Positions 822 through 62,448 of a stretch of DNA of 64,000 nucleotides are shown piece by piece. The position numbers were made by a program, and so were the translations under genes. Where the stretch lies: IMG/VR virus record IMGVR_UViG_3300034073_002480, positions 64,001 through 128,000 of that record; one strand, written 5' to 3'. The notes under the pieces were generated by a model. That model did not search any database. It worked only from the letters and a program-made list of their open reading frames with translations, and was not told the origin of the DNA. Position 1 is the first letter of the stretch; every line of letters begins with the position of its first letter. The stretch comes from a virus.

Positions 822-1436
822 TCATGATAATATTTTACGCATCATTTTTTTGTACTTAGGATGCTCAAGATAGTAGTCCAAACAACGATCCAGCAACCGT
901 GTCTGTACCTGTGTACCTTTTGTCTTGTATGTTGCTTTGAGCATACGCAGTGCCTCTTTGGTGTTGTAAGCCTCCAACACAGTTATAGGATAACCAGTGA
1001 CAACCTCATAGCCCAAATATAGATGAGTAGGTTTTTTCAAAGCTGGTGGTTCTAGTTGCCATAAGTCACGCTCCTCTACTACATAACCTCGCTTGGCATA
1101 TATCTTGTACCAGTACTTAGCTATCTGCAAAGCCCGTCTGTAAAGAAACACAGGATCATATCGCTTCTGGTCAGTAACGTCGCCTGTTTTAACACACAGA
1201 TACCAGTTATGTGGCGACCAGAACTTCAGACGCTCTCTTTCTAGTGTGACATCATCCTTGGCGAACAACACGAAGCCCCATAGAAAATAAGGTCTTGATG
1301 TTGGTCTATCTTCGTCATAACAAATAAGCTCGATCATATATGCGCCTAATCGCCCTGATGGATACCGTTTGTAGGCATAGGGCAACCGTATATGTTCACC
1401 GTGTGACTTAAGTAGTTGTGGATGTACAAGTTCCAT
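822..1436 (-). CDS. Hypothetical phage protein
   Basis: 204 aa ORF, no recognised motif. Confidence 0.7.
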   Translation of the reverse strand: MELVHPQLLKSHGEHIRLPYAYKRYPSGRLGAYMIELICYDEDRPTSRPYFLWGFVLFAKDDVTLERERLKFWSPHNWYLCVKTGDVTDQKRYDPVFLYRRALQIAKYWYKIYAKRGYVVEERDLWQLEPPALKKPTHLYLGYEVVTGYPITVLEAYNTKEALRMLKATYKTKGTQVQTRLLDRCLDYYLEHPKYKKMMRKILS

Positions 1437-1748
1437 ATCTATCTTTTATTCATTTCTTTGTAAGCATAGTCATAACCGCACATAATAGCGTTGGCAAACC
1501 AAGTTGTCATAAAATCTTCATCAAAAACTAAGGGGATATTATTTGCTTGGATGGTTTTAATGAACTCTTTAGCCCACTCTCTTGCATCAGGATTATCGTT
1601 TAAATGCATTTTTTACCTACTACTTTGTGCTGGAAATTGCCATGTTGTGTATATGGGTTCTTCATTAACAAACATGATGTTATATTTATTATAACCCTCA
1701 CGATCATACCAATTATCGCTATGTTCATCTTTTTTGTGATATAGTACG

Positions 1749-2033
1749 TCATTTTTGCTGATACCCTTGTATAGATTTCAGAGGTAAAGGCGCACGAGGT
1801 GCAGTTGTGTCGATGTGAGACATATTAACCACAAGCTTTGTCATACGGTTGACTACCCAGTTATGACAAGCTGGTTGTTTACTTTCAGACTTAATATGCA
1901 ACACACCTTGGATCTGGTAAATCGCTGGTTGGTCGCCAGTAAACATTATAAAATCGCCTTTGTGAACTTGTAAATCAGTTGCCAGAATTTGATCTACAAT
2001 CTCACCTTGATGGTCATAAAAATAGTGGTTCAT
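1749..2033 (-). CDS. Hypothetical protein
   Basis: 94 aa ORF, ATGA overlap with upstream ORF. Confidence 0.7.
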   Translation of the reverse strand: MNHYFYDHQGEIVDQILATDLQVHKGDFIMFTGDQPAIYQIQGVLHIKSESKQPACHNWVVNRMTKLVVNMSHIDTTAPRAPLPLKSIQGYQQK

Positions 2034-2263
2034 GCCTCTCCTGTCAATAATTTACCAAGCAGTTTATATACTATACCAGCTTCTTCCAGACCGAGACTGA
2101 TACTATCTTTAGCCTCATACTTCTGGGTTTCGGGTGATCTCTCTTGATATGAAATTGTAACACCTTTTCTATCAATGTCAGACATTTCGTTGGTCAATAC
2201 ATATCTGTAATCATCACAACATCCTTCTGGGTATATGTGGTAAACTGTAACAATATCTGTCAT
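2030..2263 (-). CDS. Hypothetical protein
   Basis: 77 aa ORF coupled to 1749..2033. Confidence 0.7.
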   Translation of the reverse strand: MTDIVTVYHIYPEGCCDDYRYVLTNEMSDIDRKGVTISYQERSPETQKYEAKDSISLGLEEAGIVYKLLGKLLTGEA

Positions 2264-2295
2264 ACTATTTATAGCCCTTTCTTTCTACGGTATTT

Positions 2296-2550
2296 ATGGA
2301 AATTGATATTCTCGATTCGTTCACACCTTCTCAGATGCATGACCCTTACACAGCTATAGATATGCTAGTAAAGGTTACAGATTTGTTACATAGAATAAAA
2401 GCAGATCCTCAGAAGGTTGACTCATTGGTTGATGATCTCTACACGTTGTCATCTTTCATTGCTAACATTAATATCCGTGACCTAGAGATCGATGTGGATG
2501 AACGTACACTAGATATGTTGGACGATGAGATAGAAGATCCCTATAAGTAA
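2296..2550 (+). CDS. Small acidic hypothetical protein (one of only two credible plus-strand genes)
   Basis: 84 aa, Asp/Glu-rich, fills a gap between minus-strand genes. Confidence 0.6.
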   Translation: MEIDILDSFTPSQMHDPYTAIDMLVKVTDLLHRIKADPQKVDSLVDDLYTLSSFIANINIRDLEIDVDERTLDMLDDEIEDPYK

Positions 2551-2643
2551 TAAGTCATGCACTAACACCAGCCAGAAGCCTGATTTTGTTACTCTGGCTT
2601 CGTGTTCTGCAATAGCGAGATCGATTTGTTTTTGGTCAATCAT
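2509..2643 (-). CDS. Small membrane protein (44 aa), not in ORF track
   Basis: Read by hand: MIDQKQIDLAIAEHEARVTKSGFWLVLVHDLLLIGIFYLIVQHI, C-terminal hydrophobic helix. Confidence 0.45.
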   Translation of the reverse strand: MIDQKQIDLAIAEHEARVTKSGFWLVLVHDLLLIGIFYLIVQHI

Positions 2644-2669
2644 AAATTTGTGTATATCTTGTGCTGTAA

Positions 2670-3017
2670 TCATAGTGGATATGCCTCTTTATTTATAGTC
2701 CATAAACGACCTTGTTCTTTATGAAAATGCCATAAAGAATCAAGACGTACTTCTGACCAACTTTGTCTCTCCCGTAGATCCAGAGTTTCATGATTATCAA
2801 AAATAACTACAAAATGTTCTGGATCACAATAACCTTCAGAATCACAGTATTCTCGTTCATGGTATTTGTCGATAACGTGGACATTGGTATCTGTTGTTAC
2901 AATATATAACTGGTTATATTGCCCGAAACACCATAGAAAGAAAATAATGATAGTCAACAAAAAAGCGCCAGCCACCAAGTTAAATGTATCTTGGTCTAAA
3001 TCCCAGATTCTACGCAT
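2670..3017 (-). CDS. Membrane-anchored hypothetical protein
   Basis: N-terminal TM segment LVAGAFLLTIIIFFLWCF. Confidence 0.7.
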   Translation of the reverse strand: MRRIWDLDQDTFNLVAGAFLLTIIIFFLWCFGQYNQLYIVTTDTNVHVIDKYHEREYCDSEGYCDPEHFVVIFDNHETLDLRERQSWSEVRLDSLWHFHKEQGRLWTINKEAYPL

Positions 3018-3352
3018 AATTCCTCGTCTATTAAATACTGATCAAATACTGCTTTGTTAATCATAGTAGCTGCTATATCTCTCTGTTCATCAATAATACA
3101 CTGGTGGCAAGCTATAGCATGATTAGTGCAATCTCCAAAGTGTTTTGAGCCATCATTTTCTTTCATATAATTATAAAACCAGTTGAAGTAATGTTTTAAA
3201 TCACTAGCTTTGTTAGCTTCTAATGAGTCAGTAGTTTCTACTACAGCGTATAGGGAAGCTGCCATAAAATCCACAAGCTCAGAGTACATTCGATTGCCAA
3301 TCTGTTGCATATATCTGTTCGGGGTTTCCATAGAATCCTTTGTCATACACAA
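2996..3352 (-). CDS. Hypothetical protein with possible Cys/His metal site
   Basis: HFGDCTNHAIACHQC motif. Confidence 0.6.
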   Translation of the reverse strand: MCMTKDSMETPNRYMQQIGNRMYSELVDFMAASLYAVVETTDSLEANKASDLKHYFNWFYNYMKENDGSKHFGDCTNHAIACHQCIIDEQRDIAATMINKAVFDQYLIDEELCVESGI

Positions 3353-4131: not shown

Positions 4132-4174
4132 ACATAGAAGAAAAAGTACGTCAGGACTGTATATAACACGGTAA

Positions 4175-5005
4175 TTAGACCGTAACTACCGTTTCATTAT
4201 GTTCAAGCTTATATCGCTTAGATTGCCAACCTTGTAGATTAGCATACATCTGGTCGTCATCCATATTCTGTGCAACGTGTTCAAATGGTGATAAATGAGG
4301 TGGTTGTGCAGTAGCAAGGTAGTCATGTAATGCAACATCTTTCTCAGAATCACGAGTACCATCATGTTGTAAATATGATACTCTTGCACACCGCCCTACA
4401 GATATTGCAATTAGTTTAGCAAAATCATCTAGATGATGCATTATCTCAACTTCAGATACAAAAGGTAAATGCCAACCACACTTGTTAAACTCAGCAGGTA
4501 AGGAGTCATTGTATGCAGCTTGCATGGTTTCAGCCAATACACGAATCTCTGGCTGCGCGGCAGGATGACATCTCTGTGCAAAGAAATTACTGTAATCTGT
4601 TGCTGTCACTAGAGTAGTAATAGTGTTGAAAGGCTCAAGCAAACGATTAACTACTTGCTTATGAACACCAAGCTCTACTAACTTTCTGGCAGAGGCTAGT
4701 GCATTTTCACGAGCATAATCCCATGCTAGTATAGCTTGTTGCTTAGTTATTGCATCGACTTCAGAATAAGCTTGCATCCCTTTTTGGTTAGCACCCCAAT
4801 GTAAAGGATACAAACCCAAATCCTCAACATATTTAATATTCTTTTCTACGGGGATTGCACGACTACTACTAGCATTGCGTGACCACATTCTGTAAGTCAT
4901 CACTTCCGAATGAATGTAACGATGATATGTCAATGCAAATGTAGTTAATCTACAACCATTACTATTTATAGAATCAGCAATGATTTCTGCTTTTGGTTGG
5001 AACAT
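4175..5005 (-). CDS. thyX: Flavin-dependent thymidylate synthase (ThyX/Thy1-like)
   Basis: RYIHSEVMTYRMWSRNASSSRAIP signature, HKQVVNRLLEPF, QRCHPAAQPEI, HLSPFEH; ATG at 5005 preferred over 5026. Confidence 0.85.
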   Translation of the reverse strand: MFQPKAEIIADSINSNGCRLTTFALTYHRYIHSEVMTYRMWSRNASSSRAIPVEKNIKYVEDLGLYPLHWGANQKGMQAYSEVDAITKQQAILAWDYARENALASARKLVELGVHKQVVNRLLEPFNTITTLVTATDYSNFFAQRCHPAAQPEIRVLAETMQAAYNDSLPAEFNKCGWHLPFVSEVEIMHHLDDFAKLIAISVGRCARVSYLQHDGTRDSEKDVALHDYLATAQPPHLSPFEHVAQNMDDDQMYANLQGWQSKRYKLEHNETVVTV

Positions 5006-5155
5006 TATAAAGCACCTAAAAAACAATAAGATGGTAAACCAGCATAGTCCGTGGTAAGCAGATTATTAGCGGCAATCCACTCACGACATTTTTCTTCTAC
5101 GGGAAAGCCCAGATGGATCTCACCTCGTATATTTCCTTTTTTGACAAAACCAACT

Positions 5156-5781: not shown

Positions 5782-6556
5782 ATTCTTTATATTCTATGGG
5801 TAAAGATTCATATGTGATATATAGTGAAGGATAAGCTTGTTCTATAGAGTCCAAGTAAGGTAAAAACCATTCGTTAGGTGGTATATAGTCATGAGAGTCA
5901 CGTACACCTCTATTGCTTGAAAGATGAATTTCTCTAGCTCTTGTCGTTGCCAGCAAACACTGTGCTATTGTCTGTTCACGGTTATTGCGAGTCCAAATAT
6001 TCACATGGCTGTAGTCGATACAAAAACCGTGTCGAGCAATATCAGCTTGCAATATAGACTCCAAATTATTATAACATGGTGCATTAGGCAACATATTTTC
6101 TAGTACAATATCGAAGTATCTGTTGTCACATAGTTCCCAATCGGAAGGATCATCTTTAGCTAAAGTATAATCAAGCTCATACCAGTTATCATGTTTAAAA
6201 TTAGTAAAAGAAGCATCTGTCCACATAGCTGTGGGTTTATGGCTCTTGTACGAGTGTATCGACCACAAAGGTACATTTATATCCTCAGCACAGAAAAGCT
6301 TGTGTAAGGCGAAATACTCCGCAATGCACGAAGGGTAAGTTTCTTGTTTACGACCATCAACAAACCAAAATGCATCATGCCAAAGCACTGTGTCAATATT
6401 GTGGTGTTTGATCTTCGGGATGTCATCTGTTGTGAAGTTGATGCCTACCGCCAACTCTAGCCCCGATAGAGACAAGGGTTCTTTCAAGATTTGGTAGATT
6501 TCCAAAAATTCGTCGAAGCTACGACCTGTACAAGCTGTTGCACTTAGAACTCGCAT
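5759..6556 (-). CDS. TIM-barrel metalloenzyme (xylose isomerase/endonuclease IV-like superfamily)
   Basis: LENM, IDYSHV, EIHLSSNRGVRDSH and terminal YE metal-ligand pattern. Confidence 0.6.
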   Translation of the reverse strand: MRVLSATACTGRSFDEFLEIYQILKEPLSLSGLELAVGINFTTDDIPKIKHHNIDTVLWHDAFWFVDGRKQETYPSCIAEYFALHKLFCAEDINVPLWSIHSYKSHKPTAMWTDASFTNFKHDNWYELDYTLAKDDPSDWELCDNRYFDIVLENMLPNAPCYNNLESILQADIARHGFCIDYSHVNIWTRNNREQTIAQCLLATTRAREIHLSSNRGVRDSHDYIPPNEWFLPYLDSIEQAYPSLYITYESLPIEYKEYGRLDKW

Positions 6557-6557: not shown

Positions 6558-7001
6558 CTAACCTCTTACTAAACCCGCACTATTTTTAGATGTATTTAAC
6601 ACTAATTCTGTTAGTTCTTCTTGTGTTGACAGACTATTAAGAATAGTGTCGATTCGTGCTTGGATTTCAGCATCTGTTGGGTATGGTCTGTAGATACGTT
6701 CATAGTGTGACTCGTTAATGTCTACAGGATAGTAAGTTTTTGTACTGAAATCAGGATGCATACAGTAGTCAAAAAAACTACTATTCATTTCATATTCATC
6801 ATCATGATCGAGGTCACTATTTAAAACATCAGAATCTGTGGTGAGTCGATAGGATCTATTTTCAACCTCCACAAAATAATTACCATTATCGTCACCAGTA
6901 GCTTCAGACCGTAGAAAGAAAGATTTGATAGTAGGGTTCTGTAGCCACCATTCTAACTGACTGACTTCTAATACTTTTTCTTGCAATTCTTTAACCAGCA
7001 T
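6558..7001 (-). CDS. Hypothetical protein, paralog of the upstream gene
   Basis: LQEK...EWW..P.I..F.....D.G..Y shared with 6991..7383. Confidence 0.7.
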   Translation of the reverse strand: MLVKELQEKVLEVSQLEWWLQNPTIKSFFLRSEATGDDNGNYFVEVENRSYRLTTDSDVLNSDLDHDDEYEMNSSFFDYCMHPDFSTKTYYPVDINESHYERIYRPYPTDAEIQARIDTILNSLSTQEELTELVLNTSKNSAGLVRG

Positions 7002-7384: not shown

Positions 7385-7927
7385 TCACACCTTCTTATCT
7401 GTTGAACCAAAAGAACCTGCACCACGTTCTGTAGTGTCATGTGCAGTGACAATAAATGTGCGATCAATCTGTCTGAAAACGGGACAAATTATCTGTACAA
7501 GACGCATACCCTTGGGCAACACAGAGTACTGAAAACCTGTTTCTGGTTCGGTGTACAAAGGTAATGGCTGCTCGACACGTAAATCATGATAGTCCAACGC
7601 TACAGCTAAACTACCCCTATAATTCTTGTCGATAGTGCCTATAGAATTAGACAACCTGACGGCTAGTTTCTTAATAGAGCTACGAGGAACAATTAAAAAG
7701 TCAATAGATTCCTGATCTTCAAAATATTGTCCCATATAATCACAATCAGTTGTCGTTTCCCAAGCTGTAATAATAACTTGTAGGTTCACAGTTGTCTGAG
7801 CTTTGAAATAAACCTTTGTGTCCTCTGGTAAACCTAAATCATAACCACAATCACCTGCGTAATTATAATCGTGGTCGCCATAGAAAGAGAGGGTTTGAGG
7901 GGTTAATGGTTGGATGTTAAGTTGCAT
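7385..7927 (-). CDS. dut: Trimeric dUTPase
   Basis: GDCGYDL, PRSS, GTIDKNYRG, RLVQ, RGAGSFGST motifs 1-5. Confidence 0.93.
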   Translation of the reverse strand: MQLNIQPLTPQTLSFYGDHDYNYAGDCGYDLGLPEDTKVYFKAQTTVNLQVIITAWETTTDCDYMGQYFEDQESIDFLIVPRSSIKKLAVRLSNSIGTIDKNYRGSLAVALDYHDLRVEQPLPLYTEPETGFQYSVLPKGMRLVQIICPVFRQIDRTFIVTAHDTTERGAGSFGSTDKKV

Positions 7928-9022
7928 TATAAATCTCTGATGGTTGTTGTTGTGTGGAAAATGCTGTGTCTGTTGTGATACAGATGTTTGATTGATGTAC
8001 GGATCAATTCTTCGTAACTAACACCTGTTTCTTCACTCATAATCTGCAATAAACCAAGATCAGTGAAGTTAAGCTCTATTGTTTCAGGTAAAGATAGAGG
8101 CTCAAAAGGTCGTGTGTAAGTAATCGGTTCAGGCATCTGGTTCTACCAAATAACGACAAAAATGGTGGTCTTCAATGTGCTGGTCTTCAAGGCGTATAAC
8201 CCAAGTATAGCAGTCAACACGTTTGCCTAACTTAGCAGGAAGATCAAGTTTACGTCTGACAATCTCTATATAATCCCAAGGTTCATAGTTGTTACAGGAC
8301 TGTAAGTCCTCTACTGTTACTTCTACTTCTAAGGTCTGTGACCATTTACCCGATGGTTTGAATAGGTCAACCACAAGCTTACCTACAATTTCAGTCCCAG
8401 TCATTGTACCAAATCTCCGTTTCTTTTTCTTTTGTACCAGACTTTCTTGAAGCAGGTGTTGGTTTTTTGCCAAAACAATAGTATTGTACAGCAACAACTA
8501 TAAGATCAAACACAGCTTTGCAGATAATAAAAGCTATATACACAAGATAGCAGATAAATACAAACCGAAAAAATTGCATTAGAATTTCAAACATAGTACC
8601 TACCAATTGTCATAGTCACTAATGTCAACTTCATACTTGACAATATAGCCTAATCCAGTAGGTGTAACTCTGTAAATTCCATCAGCACTAATACTCAACG
8701 GCTCTGTAAGCCAAATAGGTTTGCTGTCACGATATTGATACTGCACAGCATACTGCCCTGTACCTTTACAGATGTCATGTATAATGTAACGATCTCCACC
8801 ACCAATAGCACCAAGATAAGGTTCATACACATCTTGATCTAAAAGGTCAGCAACATAACCCAAACTCCTATGTTTGTCAGGGTCTCTTCTGTACTTAGCG
8901 GCTTGTTCTTCCGCCAGCGCACGTTTCAGTGGTTGTCGGTATAGCCGTGCCAACTCTTCTTGTTCTGGCGTGGCTAACCAGTCTATAACATGCTCACCAT
9001 TAGTGAACTCAATATGTAGCAT
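7927..9022 (-). other. Run of four small hypothetical CDS (7927..8136, 8129..8497, 8391..8606 membrane, 8600..9022)
   Basis: Abutting or overlapping minus-strand ORFs, no recognised domains. Confidence 0.6.
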
Positions 9023-9249
9023 AGATGAACCCTTTTAGTAATAGTTCTTGTTTTGTGTGTTGTTGTGATTGCAATTCTAGCATAACGTCATCTATTATAG
9101 TTGTCTTGCACGAAAAATCACATTGGTACATAGAACGCATAAGACTGCAATGTAGTTTTACACGTACTGTCTGGTTATCATACAGAAAGACCGTAGAAGA
9201 GAGTAATGATGGTCAACTATAAGTCTTTGTTGTTACCAACGTTCTTTTT

Positions 9250-9810
9250 CTACGGTTTATATTCTCTATAAATGTTTTGCCAAGGTTTACCCACTTTTTT
9301 ACAATACCGCAAAGCATTGTATGTCCCTCCCTTCTGCGATGCAGGGTTTAGATAAAAAACAGTTGCATCACTGTTGTCAATCATATACTGGTTACGCCAT
9401 TGTAGTTTGGAGACATGATACTGACCCACTGGCAACCCATATTTTGTTTTGTAATAAGGTTCAGTGTCTACAACAGTGATATCTGTCGCATAGTCCATAT
9501 GCTGCAACAAAATCTGACGAAACTTATTAGAGTCCCATCGTTCTGTGAATAAATCATAGCTATACGGCAAACAAATATGCAATGGCAAACCTACCTCAAT
9601 AGCAAACTGTTGTGCAGCAAGGTCAAAACCAATCTGACCACCACATACAAAACCAGCGATGTTAGAAAGGTGGTATTTACCAGCAGACTCGGTGCTGAAA
9701 AATATATGCAGTTTCTGTTTCAAGAAAGACAAGAAGCCTAGCATTTCAGACTCGCCTAGCTTCTCTGTAGATGGGAATCTATGACCACTAAACGCTATAA
9801 TTTGTGCCAT
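9250..9810 (-). CDS. SLOG-family protein (YspA/DUF1273-like)
   Basis: AFSGHR, CGGQIGFD, RNQYMIDNSD, GGTYNALRY motifs. Confidence 0.85.
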   Translation of the reverse strand: MAQIIAFSGHRFPSTEKLGESEMLGFLSFLKQKLHIFFSTESAGKYHLSNIAGFVCGGQIGFDLAAQQFAIEVGLPLHICLPYSYDLFTERWDSNKFRQILLQHMDYATDITVVDTEPYYKTKYGLPVGQYHVSKLQWRNQYMIDNSDATVFYLNPASQKGGTYNALRYCKKVGKPWQNIYREYKP

Positions 9811-23854: not shown

Positions 23855-23877
23855 AGAAGAAAAGGTGAAGTGTTTAT

Positions 23878-43305: not shown

Positions 43306-43326
43306 AATTCCTCTTAAAGACTATAG

Positions 43327-43360
43327 AAAAAGAGGGGTGAGCTTTCAAAACCCACCCCTA
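43327..43360 (-). terminator. Intrinsic terminator between the Ubl and JAB genes
   Basis: Minus strand AGGGGTGGGTTT-tga-AAGCTCACCCCT followed by CTTTTT, 5 bp after the Ubl stop. Confidence 0.8.
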
Positions 43361-45763: not shown

Positions 45764-46000
45764 TTACATTGATCTCCCATTTAAGAAATAATAACTGTAC
45801 TACATACCGTTTCCAATATAGAGTAGAGTGTGGGTCGTCAAACTTACAAACAACCAATATAGGATAATTATTAATCATTATTGACACATAGAAAGTAAGT
45901 CTTATACCAGTGTGATACTCTAGATACCATTGCCAATTCTTAACACATACTGTCAGTTTCATTTCTTCTATGGTAGGGGGCTGTTAACCCCCTTTATTAT

Positions 46001-52650: not shown

Positions 52651-53405
52651 AAAAAGAAAACACCGAGTATATTACCCACAACAGAGTTCTCAGCAACTAC
52701 TGTGTTTGTAGGGTAGTAAGTATTAGGTAATACAATAGGTGCTGTATAGCCAAAAGGCACTACAACAGGTACAGTACGATTACCACCATCTGAGAAAATT
52801 GTGACATACCGAGTTTCTGTACGACCACCGCTTGTATTAGGTAGCCTGTATTCTGGCAGATATGTTGTTGGTGTCGATGGTTTTGTTTTTGTTGTCGCTG
52901 TTACAGGTCTTTCTATAGGGCGACTACTGTACGATGAATTGTATGACGACCCGAACGTAGAAGATGAGTTGCTGGATGAACTACTTGTTGCTGGCTTTGT
53001 CTGGCTTGATGATGAGCTAGATCGCGAGTAACTTGTAGATGACTTCGATGACGATGATGGTGCAGATTTGAAAGATGAACTCGAACTTGAAGATTTACCA
53101 CTAGAACTTGAGCTTGACGATCTTGCTTCCACAGGCATTGGTAAATTACAGAGTAGAAAACCAACAATAGTAAGTTGTGTTAATCTTTTAAGCATACAAT
53201 AAGGCTCTTGGTGTATAGGTTTAGGTTTAGATGTCAAATGAAAAGCAGAACAGTTAGGACATTTGTAAGCTGTTAAACCAAATCTTGCACCCTCTTGTTC
53301 TGCTGTGTACCGACTATTGTACGTTGTCTTCTGGAGACAAGACCGTATGTGTATTTGCGTTGTTCGCAGTAGTTGGTGTTTGTTTTTTGTACGTGCCAAA
53401 ACCAA
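52599..53405 (-). CDS. Ser-rich membrane/exported protein; probable internal start at 53195
   Basis: MLKRLTQLTIVGFLLCNLPMPVEA signal-like segment, poly-Ser tract, C-terminal TM; upstream part carries YKCPNCSAFHLT. Confidence 0.7.
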   Translation of the reverse strand: MVLARTKNKHQLLRTTQIHIRSCLQKTTYNSRYTAEQEGARFGLTAYKCPNCSAFHLTSKPKPIHQEPYCMLKRLTQLTIVGFLLCNLPMPVEARSSSSSSSGKSSSSSSSFKSAPSSSSKSSTSYSRSSSSSSQTKPATSSSSSNSSSTFGSSYNSSYSSRPIERPVTATTKTKPSTPTTYLPEYRLPNTSGGRTETRYVTIFSDGGNRTVPVVVPFGYTAPIVLPNTYYPTNTVVAENSVVGNILGVFFLCFFSLIMFIIIRSIFF

Positions 53406-53638
53406 TACCTCGTCTGTATTTGTTATTAGCTTTTATGTGATTTTTGTTTACGAAATGTTGGTAAATGTGTGTTGTGGAACAAAGGTAGTTGTGGCTGTTG
53501 TCTTGCAAGGGCAAGCATTTTTGCCAAGCATCGATCTGTGTCGGACATATTAGTATCGCACCGTATAACCTATTATTAAGTATAAAAGGACAGAACCTAT
53601 AACGAAAGTAGATAAAATACCGTAGAAAAGAAAGGGCA

Positions 53639-54517
53639 TTAGACAGACCTCAGTGATGGATATAGGTTGATTTTAGTGTCACAAAACAAAGACCGTAGAA
53701 GAGAAGGTGGTATGTAACGGTCAAAAGTTTGCATTACTTGCCAACTCGGTGCTTGCTTGAAGACCTGCACAAGTTCATTGCAACTACGATCAGGGTTAAT
53801 CTTCTGTTCGTATAAGTCACATAAAGTATCTTGATAATCCCACAATGTTTCCTGTATATCTGCTGACAACTGGAAGTCCAAACGCAAAGCAAACTTCAAA
53901 GCTCGGAGGATACGTGTAGGATCAGCGCTAAAACGATCTATAGGACGACCTACAGTGTGGATGAATTTCTCTTCTATGTGTATGCGACCGTGATAAGGAT
54001 CGATAATACCCGATGTCATAGCATTTATAGATTTCCAGTAGTCTTCTGATCCAAAATGATTTCTGAAACGTACAGGATAATCAACCCACCACAAGTCTTC
54101 TAAGGACTCCAGTGGTATAGCCATAGCGTTCATTGTGTTGTCGCGCCTTGCCAGATCCTGTTCAATAGTAACGTCAGGTGTATTCACAACAGTAACAGGA
54201 ACTACATTATCTTGTGTATAGTCAGCATCAGCTTCGCGTCTTGCCAGTACAAAGTCAATTACTTGACCTGCAATCTTCGCTTTGATGACACCCATTTGCC
54301 AAGAAGTAGTGTTACTGTCATCAGGCATTTGATACGCTGACTGGCAGAAAAACAAATGGTGATATTCGGGAGCAGGTAGAATAACTTGTGCGCCGTTGTC
54401 AAGTAAAAACTCCAACAGCGAAGCATAAGTAGTACCTGTCACACAAATGTCAATGTCTTTTGTATGTTCACCAGTAAATAATGACCGAACGAAACCGCCA
54501 ACTAAGTAAAATTGCAT
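53639..54517 (-). CDS. tRNA nucleotidyltransferase (CCA-adding/poly(A) polymerase class II head)
   Basis: YLVGGFVR, DIDI, DLARRDNTMNAMA, DPYHG, RFSADPTRILRA. Confidence 0.9.
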   Translation of the reverse strand: MQFYLVGGFVRSLFTGEHTKDIDICVTGTTYASLLEFLLDNGAQVILPAPEYHHLFFCQSAYQMPDDSNTTSWQMGVIKAKIAGQVIDFVLARREADADYTQDNVVPVTVVNTPDVTIEQDLARRDNTMNAMAIPLESLEDLWWVDYPVRFRNHFGSEDYWKSINAMTSGIIDPYHGRIHIEEKFIHTVGRPIDRFSADPTRILRALKFALRLDFQLSADIQETLWDYQDTLCDLYEQKINPDRSCNELVQVFKQAPSWQVMQTFDRYIPPSLLRSLFCDTKINLYPSLRSV

Positions 54518-54671
54518 ATTAGTAAAAACCACACTACATCTATGTAAACAACAAGTCCAGCTATAATGATAATATCTGGATCAAATAGGTAAGAATCAGG
54601 TTTTGCCATAGCTGTATAGATGCCAACCATAGAAGAGAAGATCAGCATATATAAAATCTGTATTTCTACGT

Positions 54672-54992: not shown

Positions 54993-55671
54993 CAGTTGCT
55001 AACCATTGCTCTATATAGTTTTTGTCTTGTGAAAAAATCGGTATCTGCCGATCTACAAACCAACCGTTTTCACTTTTGATGACACAACGACCACGTTTAT
55101 AATAAGGTTCAAAGTCGTTGAAGTTTATCTTGTGTTCTTGCCACAACATTTCTTGGATCTGAGCGCAAGATTTATTTTGTAGTTGATTGTGAGAAAAATG
55201 TGCTTGACCTAACATCTGGATAGCATTACGTGTAGCATCTTGCTGCCTATGGTAGAAATAGTTATTGACTTCAGCTTCAGGCAGAACAAAAGCACGAGAA
55301 TCAAAATAAACTTGACCACCTAAATAAGAAGAGAAAGCTACAGATGCAATAGCTGCTGAGATCGACACAATCTTTTGGATATTGTTGTCAAACCAAGCTT
55401 CAGAGTTAAGCTTTTTGTAATTGTGTAGTAGCAAAGAGATTTCATCTGACTGCACAAATTGCACAACACTGGTTTGTACTTCTTCAGCTAAAACTAATGC
55501 TGTGTGATCCATAGCTGCCATAAAATCAGTGTCCCAAGGTCGCTGCATATTACGGGTTAATGTGTGAGCTGCTCTGATGTCAAGACGAACTACAAGCGGC
55601 AACCTGCGAGTTAAATACTTTCTTTCTACGTTCTCGTATGTTTTCATACGGTCGCCTAAGCTATTTTTCAT
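54985..55671 (-). CDS. thg1: tRNA(His) guanylyltransferase Thg1-like 3'-5' polymerase
   Basis: RMKTYE, VVRLD..AAH..T, QSDEISL, FDSRAF, RQQDATRN, SH.QL.NK, KRG. Confidence 0.93.
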   Translation of the reverse strand: MKNSLGDRMKTYENVERKYLTRRLPLVVRLDIRAAHTLTRNMQRPWDTDFMAAMDHTALVLAEEVQTSVVQFVQSDEISLLLHNYKKLNSEAWFDNNIQKIVSISAAIASVAFSSYLGGQVYFDSRAFVLPEAEVNNYFYHRQQDATRNAIQMLGQAHFSHNQLQNKSCAQIQEMLWQEHKINFNDFEPYYKRGRCVIKSENGWFVDRQIPIFSQDKNYIEQWLATDE

Positions 55672-55964: not shown

Positions 55965-56469
55965 TCTCTACATATTCTCTTAGTGCTTCTCCTGAAGAGT
56001 AGATTAAATCTGGTTTACTGCCGTTTAGATCCTCCCAAGTTAGCCCTCTTTCTTCTAGCAAATGATCAATAAAGTCAACCGTAGAAGAAACGGCTGTAGG
56101 GTAATGTTCAGCCTCGTAGTCAGCAATGATAAGCGACAATAAGTAAGCAAATCTACCTTCCTCTGAATCTATAGGTGAGTCAAAATACTGTTCAAACACG
56201 GCAAGTGCTAGTTCATAGTCAGCATCATTTTGTAATTGCCGCAGTTGGTATGTTTCGTAGGTCATCTCTACAAGTAATTCTTTTACTGTTGTTTCCACTA
56301 GATGTCCAGTATCTTTCTGGTACAAAGGTAATTTGTTATAACCATATTGATGTAGATTATCACCTTCATACACAAAAAGTTTGTCAGATTTTGGGAATTT
56401 GACAGTAATACAATCTGCTTTTTCTTTCAATAATCGCAAATCATCAACAGACATTAGTTTGTAGATCAT
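55873..56469 (-). CDS. Orphan HigA-like antitoxin with N-terminal extension
   Basis: LQNDADYELALAVFEQYFD...LLSLIIADYEAEHYP...IDHLLEERGLTWEDL...LSHFFRLPVQAF is the HigA pattern; no HigB nearby. Confidence 0.8.
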   Translation of the reverse strand: MIYKLMSVDDLRLLKEKADCITVKFPKSDKLFVYEGDNLHQYGYNKLPLYQKDTGHLVETTVKELLVEMTYETYQLRQLQNDADYELALAVFEQYFDSPIDSEEGRFAYLLSLIIADYEAEHYPTAVSSTVDFIDHLLEERGLTWEDLNGSKPDLIYSSGEALREYVENEIIDIHDLRVLSHFFRLPVQAFIVGGYGA

Positions 56470-56801
56470 AATAAATCAAACACCTTTTTGAATAAAACTA
56501 ATGAGTCATCGTACCATAAGACCTGATCTTTTAGAGATCTATTATAACTGTATGGTCTATGGTTAAAACATAAAGACTCAAACTGCTTCAGATTTTCTCT
56601 AGTTATTTCTGTCAAATCTTCTTTTCTATGGTCTTCAAAAGGTGTAGGACAAGAGCATCCTGAATCAGTAGCATAGTAAAGTTTGTTTGTTTCAGTGTCT
56701 TTAAAAACAACCAGCATATCAAATTCATAGGAGTCAGCTACGTCTACGTTATCTATGATCTGTAAACCAAAATGTTCTGGATTATAGTATATGTTTTTCA
56801 T
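56466..56801 (-). CDS. Hypothetical phage protein
   Basis: YYNPE.FGL, SYEFD, YYATDSGCSCPTPFE. Confidence 0.75.
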   Translation of the reverse strand: MKNIYYNPEHFGLQIIDNVDVADSYEFDMLVVFKDTETNKLYYATDSGCSCPTPFEDHRKEDLTEITRENLKQFESLCFNHRPYSYNRSLKDQVLWYDDSLVLFKKVFDLL

Positions 56802-56970
56802 CTTATTAACGACCCAAAAGTATAAAACAAAGACATACCCAACAACCCCATAGAAAAGAAAAGCTGCTGTGCTTCATTGTTGCGTAGCAGATGACACAAA
56901 AACAAAGCACAAAAAAACACCAGCGATAAGCCAGTGTTGAAATTGATAGTTGTGATTAATTGTTGCATAG

Positions 56971-57331: not shown

Positions 57332-59638
57332 TTATGCTTCTGTGTATTTGATCTCAATGTCAAAAGCCTTGTAGAAAGACTCTAATAACCGAAACCAAGT
57401 AGGATGTGGTTGGTTGTCTACCATAAGACCTAACCGAGCAGGGTTGAACAAATCTTGGACTTCCTCTACTTTAAAAGTAGGATTAGTACGTTTCAACATA
57501 TCTTTCTGTTGGTTAGGGGTAAGACACTCCCATGTCTCATCAGATACAAGCTTCTGAGTATACAAACGTAGTAAAACATGGCGGAGTTCCAACCAAGTTT
57601 GTTTTGTTGCGTCACCTAAAGAGCCTATGACTATCCCTTTCAGATATTCATATATGACAGGTAAAGATACAGGTTGGAGATTTTTACTGTCACAGAAAAC
57701 AGGCGACCCGCAACGTACAGTCTGCTTCGCCATAAATTTGATGTGGTCTTCCACCGTGTATTTATTACGATTTTGCTTCACACCAGATTTTTTTGTCTTT
57801 GGTGTTTCGAGTTGCAACCATTCTGCATGATTTTTCTGTAACCACTTATGGCATCGTGTTACAATCTCGTTGTAGTCCTTAAGCAACAGCAAACAGTCAG
57901 GGTTTGTTTGGAGTTCTACTATCGGTGTATAACTGTCAATAATTCTACGGAACATAGGATTGAAGTCACCACGACCATTTACAGACCCTAATACACCATT
58001 CTGGTATCGCAAGTCACAAGCGGAAAAAGCACGACAAGCTGCTTGGATCTCTCTTGTTTTGTCAAGAGGATCAGCCAATAAGCGTAGTATATGTTTGCCT
58101 TTTTGTCTTACGACAGTTTTATAGTTGTCTACGCGAGAATCGTAATCCTCACACTTGTAAACCGCACCCATAGAAGAGAAATGAGCTTTGCCAAGTAGTA
58201 TAGACTCAGACGACCAGCTACCATCTTTGAGGCGAATATCCATCCATACACGGTTAGTTTTATCTACACTGTTGTTGTACTGTGAACCAGTGTCAGCGTG
58301 TGAAAGACCTCTTGCCGTAGATTGCATTGTGTCCTTTGTATGCTGAATCGCAGCAATACGAAACCTACAAACTGTCTCTTGTACAACAGATTTGCCGTTC
58401 TGTGTTAACAACGAACCATCAGGTCGCAGTTTGTGGATTAGTGCTACAAAAGAGTCGCTATACCCACCATTAAACATCTGCGCTTGAAAACCTTCAAAGC
58501 CATTGCGTACTTTGTACTTAGGCTCTTGCTTCTCTACATGTTGTGGCTTCTCTGTCCTTGACAGAAAATGTGTAGTATATTTTGCAGTTGTTGGGTTGTA
58601 GGACTGAATTGAACAGAATGACCATAGATGGTTTGCCACAGGTTTATCTGCAAGAACCATTTCAATGCGAGTTACATCAATATCAACACCATCTTCTGTT
58701 GTGTACTTAGCCGCAGTGTGTTCTGGGACATAAGGTAGATAAAAGAGTTCTTGGTTGAAAACCTCTTGCTTTTCTGTAGCGTTGTATTCCAACGGTGAGG
58801 ATGACTTACGACTATTGGTATTTAACGCTGCTCTGCCACGTATAACCAAAGTCTCTTTCTTGGAAACCCGTAGTTCGTTTTTGTTGTTGAGTGTTGGGTG
58901 GTCAGCAGGGTTGTACACAACCTTTGGCAACCAATCTACTTTGATAAGAAGTGGTGTGTCAAGAGGAATAGGATTTTGTAACTCGAACTCCTTGTTAATA
59001 GACTGCAACCATTCTGTAATAGGTTGTTCTGAGAGCCAATTTGTATAGGCTTCGGGGTCAATGTGATCTGCTTGTCTTACCTTTTGGTCACGTACATCTT
59101 GACCATTGAACACCAACCTATGCTCCACAAGTGTGTTGTCATCTTGGAGAGGTACAATGACATCCTCAACCGTAGAAGATAAAGGTTGTGGTTCATCGAC
59201 AATTTCTACTTGTGGTTTTTTGGACTCCACGAAATACAACCATTGTTGTTTTGCTGCTGTATCATTGGACACATTGACAGTGAAACCCATGTTAGCTTTG
59301 TAGAAATCAAAGAACTCATCTGCAAGTTCTGGGTATTCCTTCAAAGCAGCAAAAATAAGTTTCTTACAACCTTTGTCAGAGTCAACAGGGAAGTCAATAA
59401 TAGGTACAGCAGGTTTTTCTTCTACGGTCTGTACTGTTGCTTCCTGTGTTTGCTCTTGTTCTACAAATAACAACCATTGTTGGTAGCTTGTTTCATTGGA
59501 AGCTCTTGAAAATGGTTGTCCAGTATTCTGTTTGTAAAAATCAAAAAATTGTTGTTTAGTTTCAGGATGATCTGTTAAATGAAACTGCACAAGCTTCTTA
59601 GCACCTTGGATACCGTTAGGGAAGTCAATTGTAGGCAT
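57332..59638 (-). CDS. Large hypothetical protein (768 aa) with duplicated N-terminal domain
   Basis: IDFP...G.KKL....L...PE....FFDFYK.N.G.....SN.T...QQWL.FVE occurs twice. Confidence 0.85.
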   Translation of the reverse strand: MPTIDFPNGIQGAKKLVQFHLTDHPETKQQFFDFYKQNTGQPFSRASNETSYQQWLLFVEQEQTQEATVQTVEEKPAVPIIDFPVDSDKGCKKLIFAALKEYPELADEFFDFYKANMGFTVNVSNDTAAKQQWLYFVESKKPQVEIVDEPQPLSSTVEDVIVPLQDDNTLVEHRLVFNGQDVRDQKVRQADHIDPEAYTNWLSEQPITEWLQSINKEFELQNPIPLDTPLLIKVDWLPKVVYNPADHPTLNNKNELRVSKKETLVIRGRAALNTNSRKSSSPLEYNATEKQEVFNQELFYLPYVPEHTAAKYTTEDGVDIDVTRIEMVLADKPVANHLWSFCSIQSYNPTTAKYTTHFLSRTEKPQHVEKQEPKYKVRNGFEGFQAQMFNGGYSDSFVALIHKLRPDGSLLTQNGKSVVQETVCRFRIAAIQHTKDTMQSTARGLSHADTGSQYNNSVDKTNRVWMDIRLKDGSWSSESILLGKAHFSSMGAVYKCEDYDSRVDNYKTVVRQKGKHILRLLADPLDKTREIQAACRAFSACDLRYQNGVLGSVNGRGDFNPMFRRIIDSYTPIVELQTNPDCLLLLKDYNEIVTRCHKWLQKNHAEWLQLETPKTKKSGVKQNRNKYTVEDHIKFMAKQTVRCGSPVFCDSKNLQPVSLPVIYEYLKGIVIGSLGDATKQTWLELRHVLLRLYTQKLVSDETWECLTPNQQKDMLKRTNPTFKVEEVQDLFNPARLGLMVDNQPHPTWFRLLESFYKAFDIEIKYTEA

Positions 59639-59774: not shown

Positions 59775-60473
59775 CTAGTTCTTTTCTTGACTACGGAGTC
59801 TATTATACTCCGACAGATAAGTGTTACCAAATAAGCGGCGATACTCATCTTTGGTGTTGAGGAACTGCTCCTCAAACCACTCCAAAAATACAGGTGTGTA
59901 GTTAGAGTCACCGATTGCAATCAGATGCAACAGAAGCGAGATAGTAGGGTTGGACAGGAACGAATGTTGCTGGTTGAGTTCTACAATAGCATTGAACACT
60001 GATGCGTAGTCAGTGATGATTATATCCTTAAAAGTCTGTGTCAAGTTGTAGGTAATAGATGTTGGTAATACATAATCCTTGCCAATTCTGATAGCTGACT
60101 CTGCTGTTGTTTCCCAACTGTCTTCTACAATGAAAGTGTCATCTTCAGTGTTGTGTACGATTTTGTACTGCCCGATCAACTTGTAGCCTATGTCAGACAT
60201 CTTTTTTGATGCTGTAGCTTCTACTGTGCGCTTACCGTCTAGTGAACGGATACTGATTTTATCAGGTTGTGTAACAGTATAGTTAGTGTCTACTAGCACT
60301 GCAAAGTTCAAAGTGTGGATTGTTTCACCATCATTTTCTTCTACGGTTGACTCAATGCGAAAAGGTAGTGAACCTGCACTTTTAGCGTTATTAGGATCGT
60401 GGTAATTAACAAGAAAAGCAACAGGCTTTGTGAGTTTTTGCTTGTCGTTGAATGAAAGTTTTGTGACTGCCAT
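59775..60473 (-). CDS. Hypothetical protein
   Basis: 232 aa ORF. Confidence 0.75.
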   Translation of the reverse strand: MAVTKLSFNDKQKLTKPVAFLVNYHDPNNAKSAGSLPFRIESTVEENDGETIHTLNFAVLVDTNYTVTQPDKISIRSLDGKRTVEATASKKMSDIGYKLIGQYKIVHNTEDDTFIVEDSWETTAESAIRIGKDYVLPTSITYNLTQTFKDIIITDYASVFNAIVELNQQHSFLSNPTISLLLHLIAIGDSNYTPVFLEWFEEQFLNTKDEYRRLFGNTYLSEYNRLRSQEKN

Positions 60474-61099: not shown

Positions 61100-61214
61100 G
61101 TTTACTCATCCTTATTTATATTGCTAAACACTTCAATTGTCTGTCCCAATACTAGAATAATTAAAGGACTACACACAAACAAAGTTACTAAAACGACTAA
61201 AGTTGTCATTACCT

Positions 61215-61531
61215 TGTTTTTGTTTTGCTGGACTACCCCTATCCCTGCTGTTGTTGTAGCAAGTTACCGACTTTGGCACGGTTACAGATAACTCAATTCT
61301 GTAGTTAGGTTACAGCAATCTCTTAGTTCGCAGCTACTTTAGCTTTGACAGGTCGTAAGCAGTGACAAGCGAAGACGCTGTGTGATTTACAACCGTGAGA
61401 TCCGAAAGAACTACTTACCACTCGCTGTATGACAGCCACCTGTAACTCTTTAACAGGTCGGTATTGAGGGTTGGCGCGTTACCGCTACCTTTCACCCGTT
61501 GGGCTTTGCTCTTTGCTTGCCCTCTCTCGAT
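61215..61531 (-). ncRNA. Candidate highly structured ncRNA or 5' leader (~320 nt)
   Basis: No listed ORF, locally GC-richer; nested stems TACCGAC/GTCGGTA (61265/61457) and CACGGTT/AACCGTG (61277/61391); several hairpins including GCG-GTAA-CGC; own promoter. Confidence 0.6.
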
Positions 61532-61537
61532 GTAACT

Positions 61538-61566
61538 AATATAAACTGATGACTAGAGAATAGCAA
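61538..61566 (-). promoter_or_regulatory. sigma70-type promoter TTGCTA-N17-TATATT
   Basis: Plus strand tagcaa at 61561-61566 and aatata at 61538-61543; predicted TSS near 61531. Confidence 0.7.
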
Positions 61567-61728
61567 GCATTTTGTTAATACTGTAATAATTAGAAATGTT
61601 TGGTAATTTTTACTTATGATTGCAAGAAATTTTAGGGATTTTAGTAATGATTTTTGGGCTTTCAGCGCTTTGTAAATTCAAAATGATCTCTTATATATAG
61701 ATATGCAAACAACAGCCTAGCAAGCAAT

Positions 61729-61761
61729 AAAAAAGCGCTTTACATTCAATCGTAAAGCGCT
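61729..61761 (-). terminator. Intrinsic terminator
   Basis: Perfect 10-bp stem AGCGCTTTAC/GTAAAGCGCT followed by a T run. Confidence 0.85.
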
Positions 61762-61785
61762 CGATCATCTATATATAGTGCAAAA

Positions 61786-62175
61786 TCAAACAGGCAAAGA
61801 AACTCGTTTAATTTTCCCTAAAAAGTCAGTTTGTGCCTGAGCAGCTATATTTTGATAAACTGCTTGTTGTTGTTTTTCAATTTCTGCCAGAACTGCATCT
61901 AAACCACGTTCTAGAGCAGCTAATCTTCTCTGTTTTGTTCGTTCTGACTGGTTATGTCGTTCAATGGCAGCAGCTTGTTGTGCTGCTTTTGCAACAGCAA
62001 GGTCAGCATAGAACTTGCAAACACGGTTGTGAAATGTAGCACGACCTCGATCTGCTAGATTGTGAGGGACAGTGTACCACAACAACACACGACCACTACG
62101 TTTTACTACCAAAGCAAACTCTACAACGTTTGCAGACTTTGTTTCGTGTAGAACGTGATACTTAGATACTTGCAT
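61786..62175 (-). CDS. Hypothetical coiled-coil protein (start at MQVSKY)
   Basis: ATG 62175 overlaps the end of the HicB-like gene. Confidence 0.65.
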   Translation of the reverse strand: MQVSKYHVLHETKSANVVEFALVVKRSGRVLLWYTVPHNLADRGRATFHNRVCKFYADLAVAKAAQQAAAIERHNQSERTKQRRLAALERGLDAVLAEIEKQQQAVYQNIAAQAQTDFLGKIKRVSLPV

Positions 62176-62422
62176 TTTTAAACTCCACATAATCATCAAC
62201 AGCGTTTTCAAAATCAACTTGTAGTTGGTCAGGATCATAGCCTTGAAAAGTAATAATGTCAGTAGTATTTAACAACCGACCGTAGTATAAACCTGTTTCA
62301 GGGTAGTATTCATAGTGACCTACCCAACCTTTATAACTACTTGTGACCACGTTCAGCCTCCCTGAAGTAAATGACAAGAAAAACACAAACAAGCAGAAAT
62401 ATAACAGTCTCAAGGGAGACAC
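62162..62422 (-). CDS. Orphan HicB-like antitoxin (N-terminal domain only; start possibly GTG near 62350)
   Basis: YKGWVGHYEY..ETGLYYGRLLNTTDIITFQG.....LQVDFENAVDDYVEF is the HicB pattern; no HicA, no DNA-binding tail. Confidence 0.8.
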   Translation of the reverse strand: MSPLRLLYFCLFVFFLSFTSGRLNVVTSSYKGWVGHYEYYPETGLYYGRLLNTTDIITFQGYDPDQLQVDFENAVDDYVEFKNASI

Positions 62423-62448
62423 AAAATATATGCCGTAGAAAAGAGGTA

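Follow-up and report, generated by a model that had tools for sequence, protein, structure and literature searches.

A long asymmetric word recurs at regular intervals along each strand of a tailed-phage genome and may mark primer start sites

What would lead a phage to write the same word of about 16 nucleotides into its genome close to 190 times, on both strands and mostly inside genes? The question is raised by a 64,000-nucleotide stretch (the window) of IMG/VR virus record IMGVR_UViG_3300034073_002480, in which a first-pass annotation of the bare sequence had noticed a recurring motif with the core CCRTAGAA. The window corresponds to bases 64001–128000 of a single 138,722-bp contig of 38% G+C, labelled G000 below. 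The contig is a tailed-phage genome with about 209 genes, as called by a simple open reading frame (ORF) caller, and 9% non-coding DNA. The word is a genome-wide cis signal that is non-palindromic, selected at the DNA level and unexplained by codon use. In our best reading it is a phage-private, strand-specific signal that is read on single-stranded DNA by the phage replication machinery. By analogy with known primases, it most likely marks the lagging-strand primer starts of the phage's own T7-gp4-like primase, a role to which we assign a probability of roughly 0.35 and which was absent from the functions first listed for the motif.

Form and abundance of the word

The window contains 63 copies of CCRTAGAA, 36 on the plus strand and 27 on the minus strand, in good agreement with the first estimate of about 60. 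Dinucleotide-preserving shuffles of the window give 3.14 ± 1.74 copies, close to the four that had been expected by chance; the maximum is 9 and none of 100 shuffles reaches 63. With up to two mismatches allowed, the 15-mer CCRTAGAARAGAAGG occurs 44 times against 0.34 expected. Exact copies had been reported at 20862, 24736, 37365 and 51939; all are present, with a further exact copy at 53693, and the 14 plus-strand variants listed with them were all recovered in the core scan. Reverse copies exist as described, at positions that needed correction by 0–1 nt (2276–2290, 19159–19173, 34111–34125, 59413–59427 and 60332–60346).

The whole genome holds 114 CCRTAGAA cores (65 plus, 49 minus). When these are aligned, the sequence logo reads a-CC-R-TAGAA-R-A-R-A-A-R-G, and the purine tail follows nearly all cores. 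An iterated position-weight matrix (PWM) scan, with a site cut-off of at least 12 bits, indicates that the first C is replaceable by A, so that the full word becomes a-[C/A]C-R-TAGAA-RARAAR-G. The inclusion of A-first copies makes the family larger than was originally recognized: 187 sites are found genome-wide (99 plus, 88 minus), against 2.7 in shuffled sequence, and 88 of them lie in the window (48 plus, 40 minus; Table 1). The information content of the word spans about 16 positions, and its tail conserves purine identity with no fixed base.

Most cores (95 of 114, or 83%) are located inside called genes, and the other 19 are intergenic. The three sense frames contain 0, 28 and 9 gene-borne cores and the three antisense frames 10, 15 and 33. 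Five of the six frames are therefore used, and the empty one is the frame that reads the TAG of the word as a stop. That the motif falls in varied frames, and that it imposes recurring peptides on proteins, had both been proposed and both hold; PSFLR, PSFLW, xFYG, FxST, TVEEK/TIEEK and HRKK are each present. Synonymous-codon shuffling within genes had been set beforehand as the test of selection on DNA. In 200 such shuffles, 34.7 ± 3.5 cores remain against the 114 observed; intergenic DNA was left intact, and its 19 cores are counted within the 34.7. For the core plus tail, the same shuffles give 20.7 ± 2.2 against 94. A core count this far above that of synonymous-codon shuffles implies selection on the DNA, and an artefact of codon use or composition is ruled out by the dinucleotide shuffles, the codon shuffles and the PWM scan of shuffled sequence. 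The claim of a genome-wide, non-palindromic cis signal thus gains support from counts, frames and codon shuffles alike. A literature search, with supplementary files outside its scope, turned up no account of the word, nor of any words set at even intervals along each strand of a phage genome.

Spacing, orientation and relation to genes

The sites are evenly spaced on each strand considered separately. The 99 plus-strand sites have a mean gap of 1414 bp with a coefficient of variation (CV) of 0.599, and the 88 minus-strand sites have a mean gap of 1576 bp and a CV of 0.596; the largest per-strand gaps are 4059 and 5505 bp. Random placement yields a CV of 0.98 ± 0.10, and in 5000 simulations the CV never falls as low as on either strand. 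For both strands combined the CV is 0.757, compared with 0.735 ± 0.038 when the set of one strand is rotated round the genome, and the two sets are placed independently of each other. Every 10-kb bin has 4–10 sites per strand, regardless of gene direction. The constraint is one site per orientation about every 1.5 kb. A check of spacing and strand over the whole genome, suggested along with the first description, thus returns even spacing on each strand and a balance between strands. Regularity within strands, together with independence between them, points to a polar process that traverses every region both ways.

The same layout argues against transcription signals and against an orientation-blind DNA binder. 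Plus-strand genes predominate between 2 and 52 kb and minus-strand genes between 52 and 138 kb, and the density of the word is equal in these oppositely transcribed parts. Relative to genes, 74 of the 187 sites are in the sense orientation, 81 are antisense and 32 are intergenic or at a gene edge, the slight shortage of sense sites being due to the TAG stop frame. Promoters, terminators or stoperator-like repressor sites could explain an intergenic enrichment (19 of 114 cores, or 17%, in the 9% of non-coding DNA) and the few convergent pairs that make hairpins after genes, but they are very improbable given the share of cores within genes, the near parity of sense and antisense sites and the equal density in both gene blocks. 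The hairpins may be just two sites, one per strand, where no protein constrains the sequence. Convergent copies 33–38 bp apart form inverted repeats at genome positions 134034/134070, 135786/135819, 95693/95731 (window 31693/31731) and 818/856. The stoperators of cluster A mycobacteriophages are asymmetric 13-bp sites present in dozens of copies, many of them inside genes; they are oriented along the direction of transcription and are bound by the immunity repressor of these temperate phages. The word, in contrast, ignores the direction of transcription and has a copy number about five times higher. A packaging or ejection signal, which had also been suggested, is a poor fit because the two orientations occur equally often throughout the genome.

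Host-wide signals and the Chi analogy

DNA nearly identical to that of the phage is present in contigs of public runs labelled lake, freshwater, aquatic or wetland, and contigs of four public runs (X5, X6, X8 and X11) cover all 30 bins, with 1560 differences. Named homologues and metagenome labels together point to freshwater cyanobacteria as hosts. The first-pass annotation had considered a host signal resembling Chi, the DNA uptake sequence (DUS) or the highly iterated palindrome HIP1, an idea that fared poorly. The 13-mer CCRTAGAARARAA has 56 copies in this 139-kb phage; across 301 cyanobacterial genomes drawn from the whole phylum it occurs 0–13 times per genome, like its reversed control. 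Because such signals should abound in the host chromosome and the 13-mer is scarce in these genomes, a host-wide signal of the Chi, DUS or HIP1 kind is not supported for the 301 sampled genomes, outside which the true host may lie. HIP1, DUS and the uptake signal sequence (USS) resemble the phage word as short words at very high copy inside genes. HIP1 (GCGATCGC), however, is a palindromic octamer with no copies in this phage, whereas the phage word is not palindromic, and DUS and USS are features of the host chromosome, where they reach hundreds to thousands of copies, unlike a word that is unenriched in the sampled genomes. Among the related genomes described below, HIP1 is absent from G000, G002, G005–G007, PA-SR01 and Pam2; G008 (66 kb, classed as a provirus by IMG/VR) and G009 (82 kb), two IMG/VR records that both encode a relative of the 272-aa protein discussed below, have 145 and 49 copies, respectively.

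The word may alternatively be a Chi-like polar signal. A helicase–nuclease or recombination machine entering from DNA ends would recognize such sites on one strand and switch there from degradation to repair, so that phage DNA, circularly permuted or concatemeric, would be protected from both directions. Chi sites, recognized by RecBCD or AddAB, are 5–8 nt long and G-rich; the host enzyme determines their sequence, and they abound in the chromosome of the host. Like the phage word they are polar, over-represented and read on one strand, and they would be needed both ways if ends arise anywhere, which fits the observed layout; the phage also carries RuvC, an AAA_24 ATPase and an exonuclease. 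We nevertheless regard a Chi-like function as unlikely, since the word is 16 nt long, A-rich, phage-private and unenriched in any of the 301 genomes. A six-frame search of the phage for a UvrD/RecB-type helicase (PF00580) and a PD-(D/E)xK nuclease (PF12705) found no RecB-like gene, which is weak evidence because Pfam also misses the TOPRIM domain of this phage.

Replication genes and candidate readers

Genes in the window encode a ribonucleotide reductase, ThyX, dUTPase, a family A DNA polymerase, an AAA_25 helicase, the AAA_24 ATPase and a GIY-YIG endonuclease. Outside the window are genes for RuvC, a dNMP kinase, an ATP-dependent DNA ligase and an N6/N4 DNA methylase. The polymerase has no close relative in the annotated phage collection, where the best identities, 46–47%, are with Aeromonas phages.

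The product of the ORF at 20769–21659 has 31 metagenomic homologues. In the alignment, a Cys4 zinc finger (CPxC...C...C) and the motifs EGEKC and DxD are invariant in 19 homologues. The AlphaFold2 (AF2) model has a predicted local distance difference test (pLDDT) score of 80, and its best Foldseek matches are Twinkle, a T7 gp4 primase fragment, the T7 replisome and DnaG cores, with E values between 4e-6 and 1e-3. Alignment and fold identify this protein as a gp4/DnaG-type primase. Searching solved structures by sequence with the primase profile returned a single non-significant match, and Pfam does not detect the TOPRIM domain, profiles being weak on such a divergent genome. A search of the phage for a second primase, of the Prim-Pol type, was negative.

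A rival candidate reader is the 272-aa protein encoded at 14874–15692. It has no Pfam or PHROG match and no Foldseek match at E 0.001 or better. The Atlas lead is KilA-N (0.86), and fold matches by VIA have Z values of 5.3–5.7, under the noise level of the tool. The protein weakly resembles a DNA binder of the KilA-N/APSES type in these predictions. A further candidate at 57332–59638 has no family, PHROG or Atlas match.

Words in related phages

Relatives were fetched with alignments of the primase and the 272-aa protein, and two cultured phages, PA-SR01 and Pam2, were added. A scan of bacterial-genome contigs with the primase alignment found nothing, and a scan with the 272-aa alignment found only a relative of the N-terminal domain, in a Westiellopsis genome. 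G001 (132 kb, primase 70% identical to that of G000) carries the same word at 115 sites, 56 on the plus strand and 59 on the minus strand, with per-strand CVs of 0.67 and 0.58. Where codons could be aligned, 49 of 98 G000 sites coincide with a G001 site of like orientation at the homologous position, and 48 of 71 G001 sites are matched in G000; nucleotide identity over the aligned codons is 64%. This conservation indicates that individual sites are under purifying selection.

More distant genomes have words of their own. G003 (111 kb, primase 28% identical) contains no copy of the CCRTAGAA word and instead carries w-GTCC-GAA-AYAAWWARg at 105 sites (52 plus, 53 minus), in all six frames and in intergenic DNA; the per-strand CVs are 0.73 and 0.61 (P = 0.011 and 0 of 3000 simulations). 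PA-SR01, Pam2 and G005 share a third word in about 100 strand-balanced copies, and further words occur in G002 and in L047/L048. These five words, in the order given, are CCRTA-GAA-RARAARG, GTCC-GAA-AYAAWWARG, GGCA-GAA-AARR, GTTA-GAA-AA and GTAA-GAA-A. All are strand-balanced and have a common build, in which a lineage-specific head of 4–5 nt is followed by GAA and then by an A- or purine-rich tail. An asymmetric standout word, with a top 9-mer z score of at least 20 (range 20–85), is found in seven of nine genomes with the primase family and in none of three size- and GC-matched control phages without it, where the top 9-mer z is at most 8.

The main text of the paper on PA-SR01 (PMC10286775) does not contain the terms repeat, primase, terminal, nick or promoter, and there 'motif' is confined to the references. 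The primase homologue of PA-SR01 (MT234670.1, 110061–110975) is annotated as a hypothetical protein and adjoins the helicase homologue; the annotation of Pam2 names the corresponding two genes DNA primase and AAA ATPase. The 272-aa protein shares 74% identity with a PA-SR01 protein, compared with 27% for the primases of the two phages, a sign of mosaic exchange. Its family is represented in G001, G003 and G005–G009, with two paralogues each in G003 and G005, and is absent from G002.

These distributions bear on the idea that the word is a site for a sequence-specific DNA-binding protein of the phage, either the 272-aa protein or an unannotated one, which would mark, organise, compact or protect the DNA or serve as a polar roadblock or loader. 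Protein operators typically have the size of this word, 16 bp with a strict 9-bp core; a phage-private word that varies by lineage resembles one half of a co-evolving protein–site pair, and the 272-aa protein, with its weak KilA-N/APSES/DdrC-like signals, is present in both G001 and G003. We consider such a binder rather unlikely, however. An orientation-blind binder should space the combined set evenly, whereas here each strand is regular by itself and independent of the other, and a tail that specifies purine class is unusual for read-out of a duplex. The 272-aa family moreover occurs in G005–G009 without a long, evenly spaced word and is missing from word-bearing G002, and its fold matches do not rise above noise.

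The word could also direct a covalent mark on virion DNA, either an interruption of one strand, as known from T5, or a base modified by a phage enzyme, for example the N6/N4 methyltransferase (genome 56620–57363). The single-strand interruptions of T5 and phiKMV-like phages are likewise sequence-specific and dispersed, but they are confined to one strand and number from a few to tens, compared with 99 plus-strand and 88 minus-strand sites here. Asymmetric, phage-specific, dispersed sites and the presence of DNA methylase and DNA ligase genes are compatible with marking of this kind, which we consider improbable on several grounds. Sites on opposite strands can be as near as 24–40 bp, and a nick at each of the two would sever the double strand. 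No methylase match was listed for G002 or G003, each of which has its own word; marking alone needs neither even spacing nor such density; and ThyX and dUTPase give no hint of hypermodified bases.

A priming-site interpretation

As a priming signal, the word would be read by the primase while it rides on the adjacent hexameric helicase (19127–20776). The strand read would be the pyrimidine-rich one, 5'-C-YTTYTY-TTCTA-Y-G[G/T]-t-3'. The core site of the T7 gp4 primase is 5'-GTC-3', in which the third base is a cryptic C that is not copied; in the same way, the 3' part of the phage site, which is the complement of the lineage-specific head, would be recognized and left uncopied. Synthesis would begin with a purine at A-GAA and continue for about 10–11 nt along the pyrimidine tract, to yield a purine-only RNA primer of the form pppAGAARARAAR. 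With sites on both strands there would be one per Okazaki fragment of about 1.5 kb. Each strand would need its own sites because forks would cross every region in both directions, as the recombination kit (RuvC, AAA_24 and exonuclease) would allow. We infer the primase as reader, and likewise the template strand, the primer start site and the start nucleotide.

Several observations favour priming. Among them are the polar layout, its independence from transcription, the conservation of sites in G001, the lineage-specific words of a common build and the scarcity of the 13-mer in the sampled cyanobacterial genomes. The phage encodes its own replisome, with primase, helicase, polymerase and ATP-dependent DNA ligase. 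Okazaki fragments of bacteria and phages are usually 1–2 kb long, and the mean gaps of 1414 and 1576 bp fall in this range. The tail specifies a purine class instead of a fixed base, as a reader sensitive only to nucleotide class would require, and a copied tract of about 10–11 nt is also compatible with priming. Two further leads are that purine-RNA/pyrimidine-DNA is the most stable type of hybrid and that retroviral polypurine tracts act as primers. The likeness to the sites of T7 gp4 and DnaG extends to a zinc-finger and TOPRIM primase encoded beside a hexameric helicase, an asymmetric signal read on one strand, a proposed uncopied 3' part, a copied part made up of two nucleotide types and an Okazaki-like density. 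According to PMC2910064, T7 primase acting on 5'-TGGTC-3' makes pppACCA from two nucleoside triphosphates only.

A number of points weigh against priming. The sites of T7 gp4 and DnaG are 3–5 nt long and frequent by chance, whereas the phage word has about 16 nt and about 190 copies that are written into genes, evenly spaced and different between related phages. To our knowledge, no primase needs more than about 3–5 specified nucleotides. With about 16 informative positions the word exceeds this recognition length, and a 16-nt requirement seems unprecedented and fragile. Equal use of the strands everywhere requires bidirectional forks through every region, which we assume. Sites lost in G001 are not replaced nearby, the next G001 site being at a median of 792 bp compared with 592 bp for random positions, and turnover therefore gives no direct sign of selection for coverage. 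PA-SR01 is regular on the minus strand only (CV 0.68, P = 0.002; plus strand 0.84, not significant), and neither strand is significantly regular in G002, G005, G006, G007 or Pam2 (CV 0.78–1.9). G006 and G007, where the primase family is present, have weak words only, and presence of the family fails to predict a long, evenly spaced word. In the primase alignment, no feature is restricted to long-word lineages. Because relatives were found via the primase or the 272-aa protein, the word is inseparable by distribution from the helicase, exonuclease, RuvC and the 272-aa family. Lastly, all 24 public runs listed consist of contigs, which are blind to RNA and to DNA ends.

More tentatively still, the priming interpretation can be extended to the clade. 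A group of freshwater cyanophages would have swapped the trinucleotide priming rule for a private long-word code of about 100–190 copies on both strands, which co-evolves with a gp4-like primase. Such a replisome would prime efficiently only its own DNA, and lineages would use dialects (CCRTAGAA..., GTCCGAAA..., GGCAGAAAA... and GTTAGAAA...). We regard this extension as possible though doubtful. If true, it would provide the first replicative primase with a long recognition sequence that shapes the coding sequence of a whole genome, and a mechanism that limits a viral replisome to its own DNA. Irrespective of its reader, the word strongly marks this phage clade and is simple to score. It restricts how proteins can evolve at about 190 places, and through it the copying or guarding of DNA in these little-studied cyanophages can be approached directly. 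Because a sister word is found in two cultured Pseudanabaena phages, PA-SR01 and Pam2, the proposal is already open to laboratory tests.

Table 1. Copies of the word found by the PWM scan (15-nt window coordinates, scores in PWM bits) and genes of the candidate readers and replisome
Feature	Window coordinates	Strand	PWM score (bits) or evidence
Word copy	1278..1292	+	17.1
Word copy	2276..2290	-	21.3
Word copy	2931..2945	+	19.0
Word copy, A-first	4132..4146	+	22.0
Word copy	4837..4851	-	17.9
Word copy	5088..5102	-	20.8
Word copy, weak tail	5785..5799	-	12.3
Word copy	6909..6923	+	21.3
Word copy	7878..7892	+	19.3
Word copy, variant core	8320..8334	-	13.3
Word copy	9191..9205	+	17.1
Word copy	9241..9255	-	18.8
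Word copy	10814..10828	-	23.4
Word copy, variant core	11477..11491	+	16.5
Word copy	12055..12069	+	21.7
Word copy, A-first	12153..12167	-	18.7
Word copy, weak tail	13191..13205	+	12.6
Word copy, A-first	13227..13241	-	20.7
Word copy, A-first	13500..13514	-	14.2
Word copy	15962..15976	+	25.0
Word copy, variant core	16888..16902	-	14.3
Word copy, A-first	17330..17344	-	18.6
Word copy	17465..17479	+	21.6
Word copy	19159..19173	-	23.8
Word copy, A-first	19197..19211	+	21.2
Word copy within primase gene, encodes PSFLR	20862..20876	+	23.7; peptide conserved in homologues
Word copy, A-first	21605..21619	-	23.0
Word copy	22559..22573	+	23.5
Word copy	22899..22913	-	20.7
Word copy	23640..23654	-	20.6
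Word copy, A-first	23851..23865	+	23.3
Word copy	24736..24750	+	22.7
Word copy, A-first	25440..25454	-	17.7
Word copy	25583..25597	+	14.3
Word copy, A-first	26335..26349	+	16.4
Word copy	27116..27130	+	23.9
Word copy	27348..27362	-	19.2
Word copy	27875..27889	+	23.2
Word copy	28053..28067	-	23.0
Word copy	28807..28821	-	16.1
Word copy	29499..29513	-	16.0
Word copy	29993..30007	+	15.8
Word copy, convergent with 31717-31731	31693..31707	+	18.0
Word copy, convergent with 31693-31707	31717..31731	-	19.2
Word copy, A-first	33173..33187	+	22.9
Word copy	34111..34125	-	23.3
Word copy, A-first	34861..34875	+	16.4
Word copy	35893..35907	-	22.7
Word copy	36148..36162	-	21.0
Word copy	37365..37379	+	24.5
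Word copy	37546..37560	-	22.6
Word copy	38026..38040	+	22.8
Word copy	39359..39373	+	23.2
Word copy	39591..39605	-	22.1
Word copy	42350..42364	+	18.7
Word copy, A-first	43242..43256	-	17.8
Word copy, variant core	43321..43335	+	16.9
Word copy, variant core, weak	43707..43721	+	13.1
Word copy	44278..44292	+	18.2
Word copy	45407..45421	+	22.8
Word copy	45619..45633	-	24.0
Word copy, A-first, weak	45886..45900	+	13.3
Word copy	45959..45973	-	17.4
Word copy, variant core, weak	46527..46541	+	13.9
Word copy, A-first	47268..47282	-	16.1
Word copy	47640..47654	-	17.1
Word copy	47886..47900	+	19.7
Word copy	49647..49661	-	21.2
Word copy	49731..49745	+	19.7
Word copy, A-first	51166..51180	+	20.7
Word copy	51939..51953	+	19.5
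Word copy, variant core	52182..52196	-	14.9
Word copy, A-first	52449..52463	-	16.7
Word copy, A-first	52955..52969	+	16.9
Word copy	53620..53634	+	24.2
Word copy, top score	53693..53707	+	25.5
Word copy, A-first	53965..53979	-	17.2
Word copy	54627..54641	+	21.5
Word copy, A-first	55617..55631	-	18.7
Word copy	56079..56093	+	20.1
Word copy	56617..56631	-	22.6
Word copy	56848..56862	+	18.0
Word copy	58168..58182	+	20.1
Word copy	59170..59184	+	21.7
Word copy	59413..59427	-	20.5
Word copy	60332..60346	-	21.6
Word copy	62433..62447	+	17.4
Word copy, A-first	63661..63675	+	20.5
Candidate reader: T7-gp4/DnaG-type primase, 296 aa, zinc finger and TOPRIM	20769..21659	-	Alignment and fold
gp4/DnaB-like replicative helicase, 549 aa, just downstream of the primase gene	19127..20776	-	Pfam AAA_25 7e-18; PHROG primase/helicase families
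Family A DNA polymerase, 910 aa	15759..18491	-	tblastn to annotated phage polymerases, best 46-47% identity
Rival candidate reader, 272 aa: possible KilA-N/APSES-like N-terminal domain, coiled coil, C-terminal domain	14874..15692	-	Weak signals

Other features of the genomes

Enriched short words in L008 (GGATTAG) and L046 (GAAGCAA) were set aside; they have no flanking conservation and may reflect protein repeats. The apparent word of L052 is a tandem array with a 66-bp period. At 450–1700 this 13-kb metagenome contig has a conserved repeat of about 25 nt with variable spacers and a CRISPR-like look, and it also encodes a distant primase relative (20% identity). In the control Pelagibacter phage Mosig (MT647606.1), two 8-mers are enriched: AGACGCAG (20 copies, 1.2 expected) and TGACGCAA (25 copies, 2.2 expected).

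Of all G000 genes, only those for a 264-aa protein, a 322-aa protein (the pair at window 40888–43305, minus strand) and an RNA ligase are found in both G001 and G003 and in none of G002 and G005–G009. That this ubiquitin-like-operon gene pair and the RNA ligase track the long-word genomes may be chance, with three genomes compared, and no link to the DNA word was seen. The ORF at window 40082–40879 is the largest of the few plus-strand ORFs in an otherwise minus-strand window. Its product is the GIY-YIG endonuclease, with a possible AP2-like DNA-binding part, probably a homing endonuclease whose gene was inserted next to the ubiquitin-like operon.

A set of minus-strand RNA-repair and tRNA genes (25273–25905, 35861–36955, 48991–50370, 53639–54532 and 54985–55671) encodes two RNA ligases, an RlaP-type nucleotidyltransferase, an enzyme of the CCA-adding/poly(A) polymerase type and a Thg1-like guanylyltransferase. 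A tRNA-Met at window 30046–30119 (minus strand) is the single tRNA of this set. The last ~110 bases of the contig (138612–138722) exactly repeat bases ~117–227, and the sequence ahead of the repeat differs. The repeat, which holds one copy of the word, could reflect an assembly overlap, with an offset, in a genome that is circular or terminally redundant, or it could be a genuine direct repeat.

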